A program made the translations under genes and the position numbers. From positions 861,548 to 925,547 of the forward strand of contig OZ241916.1 of NCBI GenBank assembly GCA_965203865.1: a stretch of 64,000 nucleotides of DNA, in the 5' to 3' direction. The stretch is from Arenicellales bacterium. Its GTDB lineage: Bacteria; Pseudomonadota; Gammaproteobacteria; Arenicellales; JAJDZL01. Below the pieces are notes generated by a model. That model saw only the letters and a list, made by a program, of their open reading frames with translations. It did no database searches and was not told the origin of the DNA. Within the stretch, counting starts at the first letter, position 1. Each line of letters opens with the position of its first letter. Below are positions 42,744 through 52,457 of the stretch, piece after piece.

Positions 42744-43151
42744 CTAGAGTAGTCTTCTCATATATTCAGAAGCTAATGCAGTAACTGCGGCACTTGTAAC
42801 TATGTTCTCGAGTTCGTCGAATTGCTGGGCACTTGGAAAATGAATGCTATGCGGTGCAACTAAATGATATTTTAGTGCCAATATCATGGAAATCAATACA
42901 AATAACCACTAATCAAAGAACATGCCTATAACTATTATAAAGGGTTGTCGAATCATACAACGAAACGATCTGAATGAGTATGCTGGCGAGTTTGTTTTCC
43001 CCTTCAATATCCGCTACTGAAAACCTCAGTAGCCGGAACGAACGCCGCAAACCGCCGTTGTTCATGTGCTGATTCGGGCTTTCCTTACTTATAGTTAGAG
43101 GCATGTCAAAGAATTGTGCCTTTTTTCATCTCGTGGCTAGTCAGGAGCCAT
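42744..43151 (-). pseudogene. Possible decayed partner (toxin-like membrane protein) gene of the Panacea antitoxin
   Basis: A frame starting at the ATG overlapping the DUF4065 3' end has 7 internal stops but a clean hydrophobic 3' part (WLFVLISMILALKY...VTSAAVTALASEYMRRLL*). Confidence 0.3.
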
Positions 43152-43530
43152 ACCTTTGGTAAAGTCGGGCATAATGGTCTTCTATCAATTGATCTGAAAT
43201 CACCGGACTTCGACTATGTCCGTTATAAATTAGATCCCATGGTGAGTTTGGTGAATGCGTCAATTGTGAAAGCTGTATTGCCGTACGCTTTCCGTAGATT
43301 TCAAGAGTTTCATCCATTACACTAGATTCGTATTCATCAAATGATTCATCATTCAATCCAGGAAAAACTTCATCCGCGCGTACAGGCTTTGAGCGAAATT
43401 TCTTCACTTTTAAATAAAGCTCTGGGATTACCGGCCCGTAGCGCCATGCCTCAGCATTTTCCCGAATTAGTGGTCGCCCATAAAGACCTAGCATCCAGCC
43501 GTGTGAAATATAGACGAGTTTTATAAGCTT
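43141..43530 (-). pseudogene. Panacea/DUF4065 (SocA-like) antitoxin, 3' fragment
   Basis: KLIKLVYISHGW..AWRYGPVIPELY..QLSQLTH..SPW are hallmark DUF4065 motifs. Confidence 0.88.
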
Positions 43531-44771
43531 GGGAATTATATACATTGATAACCAGACCACTGTATACTGTTCTGCGCAGTGGGCATTCCAATGAATGCTT
43601 TAAGTCTTCCTTCTTCCTGCGCTTCGGGCCGCCCGCCCAAAGTGCCGGTCAACCCGACACGAAGAACATTTATAGCAGCGTTTACATCCCTGTCTTCAGT
43701 ATAGCCACAAGCTTTGCAAAGATAAGTCCTATCGCTTAGTTTTATCTTTTCCTTAGGCTTGCTGCCGCATTTGGAGCAAGTCTGGGATGTAAACTTAGGA
43801 TTGACTTTAGATACGAAGCCACCGGCACTCTCAGCCTTGTAGCTTAGCATCTCATTAAAGTCTCCCCATGTCTGGTCAAGTATTGACCTGTTTAATCCTG
43901 TTTTACAGCTACCGCCAGTAGCTGTCATATTCTTAACTTTCAAGTCTTCCACGTAAAACTTGGAAGTGCAGTCTTTCACTAAACTTGTAGTCAGCTCGTG
44001 CAAGTAGCCTTTGTTTCTTTCCCTTGCCCTCTGCCACTCTTTATTCAAAGACAGAATCTTCTTTTTTCTGCTGTTTGAACCCTTTACAGACTTGGAAACT
44101 TTCTTCTGTAAAGTTCTTAGTTTGGTTCTGTCTACATTCCTTTTAGGAATTTGCACTCCATTGGACAAGGAAATCCTGTTTAACACTCCAGCATCCACTC
44201 CTACAGGAGCTCTTGCATCCTCTACTTGTACATCCGGAAGCTGACAAACCAGTTGTAGCTTAACTCTAATTGGAGTCTTTACTATCCTAAGTATCTTGGC
44301 TTCTCCCTTTAGTTTTCCTTTATACCTGAACTTTCCAATTCCTTTTACCCGAATACAGTTCCAGGAAACTGCCTTTTTTATCTTAAAGTCGCTTGTCTCA
44401 AAAGACTTGACTCCCCTGTTCCTCGACTTGAACCTTGGAAACCCTGGCTTCTCCCCTTTCTTTTCTCTGTCAAAGAATCTTTTGAACGCTTTATCCAGTC
44501 TTCTCAGGCAGGTTCTCTGAGATGAGCAGTGAAACTTCTCAAACCACTCGTCTTCTTGCCTTATTGTTGTTAAGGACTTTTGCTGGTCAAGATAGGAAAT
44601 GCCTATATTCTGCTTCTTGTAGGCATCTATTCTTTCCTGCAAGGCACAGTTCCACAATAGTGTTTCCTGATTCAGAAACTCTTCCAAGTTTCTATGACAC
44701 CCTTTGGAAATCTTTGCAGTGTAGGTATAAGTTCTAATCATGGTAATTGGTTATCATTGTATATAAGTCCC
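43531..44771 (-). mobile_element. Non-autonomous TnpB-carrying element with 24-bp terminal inverted repeats and an 8-bp target-site duplication
   Basis: TIRs GGGAATTATATACATTGATAACCA (43531-43554) and, on the minus strand, GGGACTTATATACAATGATAACCA (44771-44748), 22/24 identical. ATAAGCTT flanks both sides (43523-43530 and 44772-44779). Excision restores the DUF4065 reading frame. Confidence 0.93.
43536..44741 (-). CDS. tnpB: RNA-guided endonuclease TnpB (IS200/IS605 OrfB family)
   Basis: N-terminal HTH region (TYTY...LWNCALQER); PGFPRFK; RuvC-I GVDAG, RuvC-II VEDL, zinc finger CSKC/CKAC, RuvC-III DRDVNAAIN. Confidence 0.93.
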   Translation of the reverse strand: MIRTYTYTAKISKGCHRNLEEFLNQETLLWNCALQERIDAYKKQNIGISYLDQQKSLTTIRQEDEWFEKFHCSSQRTCLRRLDKAFKRFFDREKKGEKPGFPRFKSRNRGVKSFETSDFKIKKAVSWNCIRVKGIGKFRYKGKLKGEAKILRIVKTPIRVKLQLVCQLPDVQVEDARAPVGVDAGVLNRISLSNGVQIPKRNVDRTKLRTLQKKVSKSVKGSNSRKKKILSLNKEWQRARERNKGYLHELTTSLVKDCTSKFYVEDLKVKNMTATGGSCKTGLNRSILDQTWGDFNEMLSYKAESAGGFVSKVNPKFTSQTCSKCGSKPKEKIKLSDRTYLCKACGYTEDRDVNAAINVLRVGLTGTLGGRPEAQEEGRLKAFIGMPTAQNSIQWSGYQCI

Positions 44772-44860
44772 ATAAGCTTCATCGGTGAGAGTGCCATTTT
44801 TCTCTCTTCTGCATGATCAAGCAAATATCTGGCTACTTCAGTACATGGGTGTCCAAACAT
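44772..44860 (-). pseudogene. Panacea/DUF4065 antitoxin, 5' fragment
   Basis: AAGGAG RBS then ATG at 44860: MFGHPCTEVARYLLDHAEERKMALSPMKL, which joins IKLVYISHGW after removal of the insertion. Confidence 0.85.
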
Positions 44861-45128
44861 AGATTATCTCCTTGCTTTTTACCTTATACCGACATTTTTT
44901 GGCAATAATAATGGGTATTCGTCCTATCTATCAGATTTAATTTGTATGGCTAAACAAGAGTGGTTATCACGATACTTATACTCCATTTTTCGAGTAAAGT
45001 GTAAATCACAATTCCTTGTAAGAATCCGCCTGCAAGTTTTCCACTGTATCAACCAAGGTGTCGAAATTTGTATTGATTCAGGTGTCAAACCAAGTAAAGC
45101 GACCTATGAACCAGAAGCAACTTCAAGG

Positions 45129-51476: not shown

Positions 51477-52457
51477 CATGCATCTAAACTGAATTAAGGC
51501 AATCTCGAATTGGCACATGATCGACAGCGGCTTGCAGCAATCGGTCCGGCAATTGAGGTTCCCAGAATCGACGATTGAAGCGAAACACAAATTCGTCAAT
51601 GTATTCCTGAAGGTATCGATGCGACACCCCGTGGAAGGTTCCCGCCAGAAAACTCTTGAAGTTGCTGATGACGATATGAACCTTCGGAAGCCATTCATCC
51701 ACTTTTTCCGGCGGGGTGGATTTGGCTTGGTGGCGATGCGATTCGCCCAGAACTCGCAAGGCATTCAATGCGTCGGTGCGAATTTCTGAATTCGGCGAAA
51801 TTCGCTTGGCAAATTCCCGCACCTGTTCCGAATTCACCTGCTCCACCAGACGAGCCGCCATGAAGCCCATGCCTTTTTCTTGCTGCTCAACGGCGAAAAT
51901 CACCGGCTTTTTGCCCTCGCTCCCGCGACCTCTCTTGCCCGGCTTGCGTCCCCCAACGAAAGCATCGTCCAACTCCACAAGCCCTTCAAGCCAGTAACTT
52001 CGGTCGCGATCCCCCATGGACTGGCGCAAAATCCTCAGCATTCGATAGGCCGTCGGCCAAGACACCCCAATCGTCTTGGAAAGCCGCTGTGCCGAAATCC
52101 CGCCCTTGTCCGTGGCCATCAAGTAAATCGCCGCAAACCATTTGGGCAGCGGCAGACGCGTATGCTCGAATACCGTACCTGCCGTGGGCGAAACTTGACG
52201 ACCGCAATTCGTGCACTCGTGCAAATATCGATGCTTTAGCTGGTAGGACTTGTCGTGACCGCACTTCGGGCAGATGAATCCGTCTTTCCAGCGCCGCCAG
52301 CTCAACTCTTCCAGGCAGGCCTCCTGAGTCGAATACTTTTGGCTCCAGTCGAAAAAATTGGTAGGGTTCTGTTGCATTTGGAAGTTCCTCTCTTGCAGGT
52401 TCAATCAGATCGTTACATGCTATTATATGACAATCCTTAATTTAATTGAGAGGCATG
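51477..52457 (-). mobile_element. IS1595-family insertion sequence (probably ISSod11 group), 981 bp
   Basis: 23-bp imperfect TIRs CATGCATCTAAACTGAATTAAGG / CATGCCTCTCAATTAAATTAAGG (4 mismatches); 8-bp TSD TTTTCAAT at 51469-51476 and 52458-52465. Confidence 0.9.
51484..52404 (-). CDS. IS1595-family DDE transposase
   Basis: Zinc ribbon CPKC/CTNC; TAGTVFEHT; VELDDAFVGG; IRTD; WLPKVHIVISN; YIDEFVFRFNRR. Possible start at the ATG at 52377. Confidence 0.92.
   Translation of the reverse strand: MNLQERNFQMQQNPTNFFDWSQKYSTQEACLEELSWRRWKDGFICPKCGHDKSYQLKHRYLHECTNCGRQVSPTAGTVFEHTRLPLPKWFAAIYLMATDKGGISAQRLSKTIGVSWPTAYRMLRILRQSMGDRDRSYWLEGLVELDDAFVGGRKPGKRGRGSEGKKPVIFAVEQQEKGMGFMAARLVEQVNSEQVREFAKRISPNSEIRTDALNALRVLGESHRHQAKSTPPEKVDEWLPKVHIVISNFKSFLAGTFHGVSHRYLQEYIDEFVFRFNRRFWEPQLPDRLLQAAVDHVPIRDCLNSV

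Follow-up and report, generated by a model that had tools for sequence, protein, structure and literature searches.

A tnpB gene as the only passenger of a putative non-autonomous IS1595-type cassette in an Arenicellales bacterium

Results

Structure of the cassette and its insertion site

A transposon-like unit that carries a gene for the RNA-guided nuclease TnpB between inverted repeats was analyzed in the genome of an Arenicellales bacterium (GenBank assembly GCA_965203865.1). The stretch of DNA under study, hereafter the window, comprises 64,000 nucleotides of contig OZ241916.1 (positions 861,548 to 925,547 of the forward strand). Read directly in the sequence, the unit extends over 1241 bp (window positions 43531-44771). 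Its 24-bp terminal inverted repeats (TIRs) are complementary at 22/24 positions, and a perfect 8-bp target site duplication (TSD) lies on both sides. Within the region 43400-44900, the longest inverted repeat is the one formed by these two arms (43530/1-43554 and 44748-44771/2). The sole long open reading frame (ORF) inside the unit is tnpB, which is encoded on the minus strand. Its ATG is separated from the left-end (LE) TIR by 6 bp, and its stop codon, TAA, falls inside the right-end (RE) TIR, 5 nt from the tip of the element. Coordinates of all features are collected in Table 1.

When the unit and one TSD copy were deleted in silico, an ORF of 156 aa (157 codons including the stop) was restored, which matches Pfam SocA_Panacea/DUF4065 (7.8e-18). 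In a sister species of the same genus (G001), the homologous SocA/Panacea gene is uninterrupted across the insertion point, where it reads TTTATGAGTTTCATTGG against TTTATAAGCTTCATCGG in the genome studied here. The 1241-bp unit, the 22/24 TIRs, the exact 8-bp duplication and the interrupted DUF4065 gene had all been described in an earlier note on this DNA, made from the letters alone, and each of them was recovered in our analysis; the sister species added an intact homologue. Contigs from two public runs (X1 and X2), which possibly derive from the same sample as the genome assembly and are not fully independent of it, cross both element junctions. These contigs argue against a mis-join, the assembly artefact that the earlier note had considered. 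At 43528-43531 the run contigs have loose ends with several alternative flanks, as would be expected of a dispersed repeat with its boundary exactly at the TIR tip.

The encoded nuclease

The product of tnpB matched Pfam OrfB_IS605 (PF01385) and Cas12f1-like_TNB (PF07282) and scored 218 bits against NCBIfam guided_TnpB, for which the cutoff is 100. Its best solved relative was ISDra2 TnpB (PDB 8EXA/8BF8/8H1J), with E=1e-39 over residues 22-365. The alignment to ISDra2 TnpB 8EXA contains the complete D/E/D triad as well as both CxxC pairs, confirming the RuvC acidic residues and the zinc finger noticed earlier. Among the copies present in this genome, dN/dS over codons 1-365 was 0.10-0.20, indicating strong purifying selection on TnpB. 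The dS values reach 0.7-1.1, and the copies must therefore be old.

Copies within the genome

The genome is a complete single contig of 3.15 Mb (98% complete). It contains 14 full-length relatives with 79-100% DNA identity, to which four copies of a more distant subfamily (55% protein identity) can be added. At least 18 full-length copies are distributed over four subfamilies, with element lengths of 1241 bp in A, 1328 bp in B, 1247-1261 bp in C and 1264 bp in D. Fifteen genome copies have 24-bp TIRs and an 8-bp TSD of their own, examples being CTCGTATT, CTATTAAT, CATAAAAT, TTTCATTT, CGTAAAAT and TTTCTTTT; such copies with differing TSDs were what the TIR search proposed in the earlier note was meant to find. 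The TIRs are kept at 22-24/24 in most copies. In this and other genomes together, a TIR accompanied by a TSD matching at 7-8/8 positions was seen at 33 independent insertions of related elements, which rules out that the TIR/TSD arrangement arose by chance. Some tnpB copies contain stops (e.g., 2122209 and 951983), and there are also short TIR-bounded derivatives that consist of ends only, such as a 421-bp element at 1151720-1152140.

Link to IS1595-type ends and transposases

No match to the Y1 transposase TnpA (PF01797) was found in the 98%-complete single-contig genome, in a search that detected its positive controls. An IS200/IS605-type partner is therefore absent from this genome. The IS1595 DDE domain (PF12762/NF033547) gave 13 matches, five of them intact. 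Two of the corresponding transposase genes sit in TIR/TSD elements with GGGAATTATAT termini like those of the TnpB cassettes (Table 1), and their 316-aa and 307-aa products match NCBIfam transpos_IS1595 (NF033547) at 187-194 bits. The ends of the DDE elements were located by means of a terminal motif and copy alignment; a k-mer search for TIRs around the five intact IS1595 genes gave nothing. Comparison of the in-genome DDE elements with the TnpB cassettes showed that the outer 11-12 nt are identical and that the TIRs differ beyond position 12. The methyltransferase tails in the two ISNwi1+-like DDE elements are of different kinds, one HNH and one GIY-YIG/T5orf172-like.

More similar ends were observed in two other genomes of the same bacterial family. 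An element at G018:C4:276896-279758, which holds an IS1595 transposase gene, a methylase gene and an HNH-like gene, is bounded by the TIR GGGAATTATATCCAATCCTAACCA, which is 22/24 identical to the right TIR of subfamily B. In the element at G019:C2:848157-851237, with a frameshifted transposase gene and a methylase gene, the TIR GGGAATTATATACAATAGTAACGA is identical at 21/24 positions to subfamily A and at 22/24 to subfamily C. One TIR variant, GGGAATTATATACTTGATTATATT, encloses differing cargo, namely, a methylase-only cassette in this genome (C1:2134261-2135726) and, in ENA contig L224, a TnpB cassette. Among the elements examined, a transposase gene and tnpB were never found together in one element. 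The TSD length of 8 bp is the same as at 18 insertions of autonomous IS1595 insertion sequences (ISs), and the terminus GGGAATTAT appears to fit the ISfinder consensus of the ISNwi1 group (ggnnatTAT).

The unit thus appears to be a non-autonomous IS1595-family cassette with ISNwi1-like ends, the subgroup being tentatively assigned from this consensus. We infer that both the movement of the cassette and the 8-bp duplication are due to an IS1595-family DDE transposase acting in trans. The earlier note had placed tnpB between DDE-type ends and suggested movement in trans, and this view gains from the copies with their own TSDs, the absence of Y1 TnpA, the shared termini and the DDE-element TIRs of the related genomes. 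Its expectation of an IS1595 transposase with the same ends was borne out at 21-22/24 positions in G018 and G019, whereas the in-genome DDE elements share only the outer 11-12 nt. Neither further TIR-bounded copies nor a matching transposase, whose lack would have spoken against the note, was missing.

A second type of IS1595 element lies within the window itself. This is a 981-bp IS1595-family IS at 51477-52457 with a 306-aa transposase gene, TIRs CATGCNTCT...AATTAAGG and 8-bp TSDs (here ATTGAAAA). The IS, present in three copies, was considered as the partner of the cassette and rejected, its ends (CATGC...) being unrelated.

A conserved right end as putative omegaRNA

The last 36 codons of tnpB together with the TIR showed 92-99% nucleotide identity, with a dS of 0-0.09 compared with 0.7-1.1 in the core. 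In a sliding-window comparison, the conserved block covered positions 1081-1241 of the element (window 43531-43691). Copies are 93-96% identical within this block and about 78% identical over the rest. When 14 right ends from all lineages were aligned, two conserved hairpins were found. An invariant G.AGAAC.GTAT motif pairs with the TIR segment GTATATAATTC (GUAUAC/GUAUAU and GAA/UUC), and the innermost pairs of the TIR stem covary across lineages, from C-G to G-C and from A-U to C-G. The single-sequence fold of the right end had a z score of -2.2. A hairpin was not found at the left end, and the one at the right end has the TIR as one of its arms.

Judged by its conservation pattern, the block at 43531-43691 is likely the signature of a functional nucleic acid that overlaps the ORF, as is the case for the omegaRNAs of TnpB systems. 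In this putative RNA, the right TIR appears to form part of the terminal stem. The tnpB frame stays open through the region concerned (43536-43646) to the TAA in the TIR, a trait that almost all lineages share, even at 46% identity, and synonymous sites are frozen in the tail region of about 36 aa. In addition, six right-end modules without tnpB were observed at other places in this genome (C1:1151721-1151883, 2159790-2159935, 587236-587410, 2157486-2157590, 573215-573358 and 640157-640237). Some of them are located within TIR-bounded miniature inverted-repeat transposable elements (MITEs) of 150-420 bp. Such solo modules could supply extra guides for TnpB in trans.

Distribution and phylogeny

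The closest homologues in the genome collection, from sponge metagenome-assembled genomes (MAGs) of Boseongicola (Alphaproteobacteria), were just 43-46% identical, and their elements have GGGGnnTTATATxC TIRs and perfect 8-bp TSDs. The same architecture was seen in ENA contigs encoding TnpBs of 48-86% identity, in the same-genus genome G001 and in four genomes of a second genus. A TnpB of 37% identity (G020) also has GGGnnTTAT-type ends. In a maximum-likelihood tree, 25 TnpBs with ends of this type formed a single clade (SH-aLRT, 92); this clade, a sequence from Bosea and a group from Chloroflexia make up an unresolved trichotomy. The elements of the Chloroflexia group are of the canonical IS605 type: TTAC stands at their left boundary, subterminal hairpins are present at either end, and TIR and TSD are lacking. 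TIRs and TSDs were likewise not found for the distant homologues from Bacillus, Halanaerobium and clostridia. It follows that the TIR association is a derived and old trait that has spread over bacterial classes. Within the bacterial family it is patchy (7/41 relatives). The phylogeny and neighborhood comparison that the earlier note had suggested accordingly places the TIR/TSD TnpBs in one clade, whose close members keep TIR and TSD and have no IS605-type hairpin ends.

The pool of homologues in public assemblies exceeded 3,800 at E<=1e-20. Pattern scans of metagenome contigs gave 0 and then 7 matches. A search of the phage collection yielded no match, and that of the plasmid collection yielded one distant match, in Bosea. 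The nearest non-TIR relative is a multicopy IS605-type solo-tnpB family in the Chloroflexia MAG CAVYFB01 (L046-L056), which would be a useful outgroup for dating the switch of carrier.

A one-sided motif next to the target site duplication

Insertions were oriented by tnpB, which gave 28 independent cases, 15 from this genome and 13 from elsewhere. Directly 5' of the LE-side TSD, at positions -2/-1, TG was present in 16/28 insertions, compared with an expected 7% (binomial p=6e-12). Taken singly, G occurred at -1 in 22/28 and T at -2 in 19/28. The mirrored CA on the RE side was seen in 0/28. Five further ENA insertions, four of which have TG, raised the total to 20/33.

Two autonomous IS1595 ISs without TnpB, with 18 insertions in related genomes, served as a control. 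Their TIRs match at 24/24 and 23/24 positions and start with GGGAATTAT or GGGAATAAT, and their 8-bp TSDs are perfect and AT rich. TG on the left was found in 0/18 of these insertions and CA on the right in 2/18, that is, 2/36 flanks overall, which differs from the TnpB cassettes at p=8e-6 (Fisher). On the basis of these counts, TG is a candidate target-adjacent motif (TAM), in which case the TSD would provide the first 8 nt of the guide. The flanking ATG/GTG/TTG was also considered as a possible start of translation into the element, and this was rejected; such a codon, 41 nt upstream, is out of frame with tnpB, and its frame meets a stop within the LE.

In a subclade of the second genus (L173-L193; genomes G014, G018, G021, G024 and G050), whose TIR is GGGAAYTATGTAYTTGACGATCC, A was present at -1 in 11/11 insertions on the tnpB-start side, where the TSD began with T in 10/11. 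Relative to the GA in the clade of the window, this motif is shifted by one base. The TSD match is poor in several of these copies.

Table 1. Features of the tnpB cassette in the window (numbered by window position) and two IS1595-DDE elements of the same genome
Feature	Coordinates	Strand	Details or basis
Split host gene with SocA/Panacea domain (DUF4065)	43141..44860 (pieces 44860-44772 and 43530-43141)	-	Homologue intact in G001
Predicted guide-encoding flank, TSD plus ~12 nt of 3' flank	43511..43530	-	By analogy with characterized TnpB/omegaRNA systems
TSD copy on RE (tnpB 3') side, ATAAGCTT	43523..43530		Reads AAGCTTAT on the tnpB strand; would be guide nt 1-8
RE TIR, inward GGGAATTATATACATTGATAACCA	43531..43554	-	Overlaps tnpB stop; terminus GGGAATTATATA common to IS1595-DDE elements
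Candidate omegaRNA scaffold, ~160 nt	43531..43691	-	Last ~50 tnpB codons plus RE TIR as 3' arm of terminal stem
tnpB, 401 aa, ISDra2-like RNA-guided endonuclease	43536..44741	-	D183, E265, D352; C322/C325/C342/C345
6-bp spacer between LE TIR and tnpB ATG	44742..44747	-	Sequence
LE TIR, inward GGGACTTATATACAATGATAACCA	44748..44771	-	Sequence
TSD copy on LE (tnpB 5') side, ATAAGCTT	44772..44779		Sequence
Candidate TAM (CAT on + strand, ATG on tnpB strand; TG directly 5' of LE-side TSD)	44780..44782	-	Flank counts
IS1595-DDE element, 2678 bp	C1:1699134-1701811		TSD TTTTATAA; 316-aa transposase and DNA methyltransferase
IS1595-DDE element, 2948 bp	C1:2154512-2157459		TSD AAAAATTA; 307-aa transposase and methyltransferase-HNH protein

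Discussion

[quoted passage not shown] In such a system, transcription of the omegaRNA would run past the right TIR into flanking DNA, the guide would consist of the TSD followed by 3' flank, and TG (RTG, possibly TGA) directly 5' of the left-side TSD would be the TAM. An empty site would present TAM, TSD and flank in succession and would be a perfect target. At an occupied site, the order would be TG, TSD and TIR, and since the left TIR would end the match after 8 nt, this site would be immune. TnpB may cleave alleles that lack the element or donor sites after precise excision and lead to recombinational re-copying of the cassette; alternatively, it may eliminate cells that have lost the cassette. 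If the DDE enzyme has no preference for TG, the enrichment would reflect the survival of TAM-adjacent insertions. The 10-fold excess of TG-adjacent insertions would then be direct genomic evidence for TnpB homing or retention in a bacterial DDE transposon that makes TSDs. Whether the clade as a whole switched from an IS605 to an IS1595-type carrier, with the TSD serving as the guide's 5' portion, a minimal TAM (NTG/TGA) placed outside the TSD and the right TIR taken into the omegaRNA stem, a solution without previous description, is a more tentative matter, and we would grant this scenario somewhat short of even odds.

Alternatively, the same trans-mobilized cassette may carry TnpB as mere cargo that has another role or none at all, with TG representing a target preference of the transposase or a selection on orientation that is unrelated to TnpB. 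A transposase-driven preference is unlikely because the TIRs of the two ends are nearly identical (22-24/24), so that a symmetric transpososome should favor a palindrome rather than a motif confined to one side, and because the control transposases have no such preference. It should be noted that the latter are only about 50-55% identical to the in-genome enzyme and that the inner TIRs differ, so the cognate enzyme could behave otherwise. TG is also missing from about 40% of insertions, and the TSDs of the TnpB cassettes are somewhat less AT-pure than the control TSDs, both of which would suit a passenger role. Against it stand the separate clade, with a different motif that is equally one-sided, and the intact active site of a TnpB kept under strong purifying selection. 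We judge this explanation unlikely.

A further alternative, which we hold to be quite improbable, is that the TnpBs are domesticated or decaying, be it as TldR-like regulators or as relics, and no longer linked to mobility, and that the TIRs and TSDs are the fossil of a single ancient capture. The considerable dS between copies, the stops mentioned above and the failure to find a transposase with an identical inner TIR in the genome would fit such a history, but the catalytic residues and the zinc finger are intact, the copies lie at different loci with a TSD of their own in each case, which points to repeated transposition, the TIRs are well preserved in most copies and derivative MITEs exist. 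The TldRs known from the work of Wiegand et al. in 2024 are reportedly devoid of the nuclease residues. Scarcely credible is an IS1341-type solo tnpB of IS200/IS605 origin, moved by a Y1 TnpA and nested in or bracketed by an unrelated MITE: an RE hairpin is present, as in IS605 right ends, and the closest non-TIR relatives are canonical IS605-type, but the 6-bp LE spacer and the stop inside the RE TIR leave no room for IS605 ends, the LE hairpin is absent while that of the RE includes the TIR arm and covaries with the TIR, the architecture is constant over a clade that extends to 37% identity and several bacterial classes, and the genome has no Y1 TnpA.

Several observations weigh against our proposal of a trans-mobilized cassette retained by TnpB. 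The copies appear old (dS up to about 1), the in-genome DDE elements share with the cassettes just the outer 11-12 nt and a displaced GATAAC, and a transposase with the same inner TIR was not found in this genome, where current mobility is uncertain. An empty-site joint was not seen in the contigs assembled from the runs. The recent activity that the earlier note had read from the perfect TSD could not be upheld on these grounds, given also that the nearest copies are 97% identical and that most pairs have a dS of 0.5-1. Flanks do not match at three full-length copies (1098821-1100148, 2205086-2206413 and 1355814-1357077). Recombination between copies explains this most simply and would at the same time suggest chromosomal rearrangements mediated by the element family. 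The omegaRNA is putative, as are its 3' end and the register of the guide; scanning 43300-45000 against Rfam (E<=1) found no family, giving two chance matches only, and none of the sequencing runs searched was labelled as RNA. With respect to the motif, TG occurs in just about 60% of insertions and is very short for a TAM. Its register is ambiguous between NTG, TG|A (with A/T inside the TSD) and TGA(W) overlapping the first TSD bases, and it is shifted in the second clade. Finally, should excision of IS1595 elements produce a double-strand break, as is usual for cut-and-paste enzymes, there would seem to be no need for homing by TnpB (PMC13565253).

Cas12 descends from TnpB, itself a compact enzyme for genome editing, and the accepted role of TnpB in transposon retention by homing was established with IS605 and IS607 elements, whose excision leaves no scar. 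Cassettes that have IS-type repeats and a passenger gene, lack a transposase and are mobilized in trans by a cognate IS are known as mobile insertion cassettes (MICs), for example, MIC231 from Bacillus cereus (IS231/IS4 group). The unit described here differs from them in the IS family and in a nuclease passenger that may promote retention of the cassette. IS1595 elements of the ISNwi1/ISNwi1+ group (ISfinder; Siguier et al. 2009) share with it the 8-bp TSD, AT-rich targets and the TIR start GGGAATTAT. Relatives have DNA methyltransferase passengers beside an NF033547 transposase, whereas our unit lacks a transposase, its passenger being an RNA-guided nuclease.

The textbook carriers of tnpB, IS200/IS605 and IS607, are without TIRs and TSDs (PMC13565253, PMC7290912, PMC6188088). 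IS200/IS605 elements are moved by Y1 TnpA into sites 3' of a fixed motif of four or five nucleotides (PMC13565253, PMC7290912). In common with ISDra2 TnpB, the protein studied here has the same triad and zinc finger, and the putative omegaRNA likewise overlaps the 3' end of the gene up to the right end of the element; if read in the TGA(W) register, the TAM would resemble the TTGAT of ISDra2. The unit is set apart from IS200/IS605 by its 24-bp TIRs and 8-bp TSD, by the lack of a left-end hairpin and of a fixed 4-5-mer at the LE and by a genome without Y1 TnpA.

Associations between TnpB and DDE elements have been reported. Altae-Tran et al. (2023, PNAS; PMC10691335) present in their main text six large DDE-associated TnpB branches (DDE-1 to DDE-6) with inverted terminal repeats, several of which they judged mobile, together with solo TnpBs whose ends match those of transposase-bearing copies, suggesting mobilization in trans. 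As in our unit, the 3' end of tnpB in these branches lies within 250 bp (<=250 bp) of the transposon end. The main text names IS630 only and not IS1595, and a 2026 review (PMC13565253) adds ISL2 and IS1031. Compared with these branches as portrayed in that main text, the unit has a TSD that is 8 bp long and variable and a TAM-like motif outside the TSD. A TnpB-IS1595 link in this sense was not found in the literature searched, which extended to the main text of PMC10691335. With respect to novelty, on which the earlier note had been cautious, the general concept of TnpB in DDE elements is thus already contained in the main text of PMC10691335; new here are the IS1595 partner, the TAM/TSD geometry with a one-sided TG motif specific to TnpB cassettes and the TIR in the putative omegaRNA stem.

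Fanzors offer another parallel, as TnpB-type nucleases carried as cargo in TIR/TSD DNA transposons (Bao and Jurka 2013, PMC3627910; Saito et al. 2023). In these, the 5' TSD is reported to belong to the TAM and the 3' TSD to the omegaRNA scaffold (PMC13565253). In the present system, by contrast, the long variable TSD would be guide and the conserved motif lies upstream; the system is bacterial and has no specific kinship to Fanzors. It is a bacterial counterpart, of independent origin, of Fanzor-carrying TIR transposons. The review cited above calls the association with DDE elements rare and mechanistically puzzling, since cut-and-paste excision already leaves a break; it treats the benefit of OMEGA to such elements as open and urges the study of prokaryotic OMEGA systems beyond IS200/IS605 and IS607 (PMC13565253). 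The family described here is a natural system in which many copies can be set beside matched control ISs without TnpB and matched relatives that bear a transposase, and it allows a concrete prediction of guide, TAM and immunity of the occupied site. If confirmed, a TnpB with a short TAM could be attractive for editing.

A second type of IS1595-like end may also carry tnpB. The distant plasmid match is a 1372-bp unit on pANAM02 of Bosea sp. strain ANAM02 (L203; NZ_AP022849.1, ~667.4-668.8 kb) that encodes a TnpB of 35% identity. Its TIR is a different one, GGCACTCCGGCATCCGAGGTTGAT, which starts with GGCACTCCGG and matches at 22/24 positions, and its 8-bp TSD, CTTTGTTA, is perfect. The Bosea host comes from a sponge, as do the MAGs that hold the closest relatives of the TnpB in the window.

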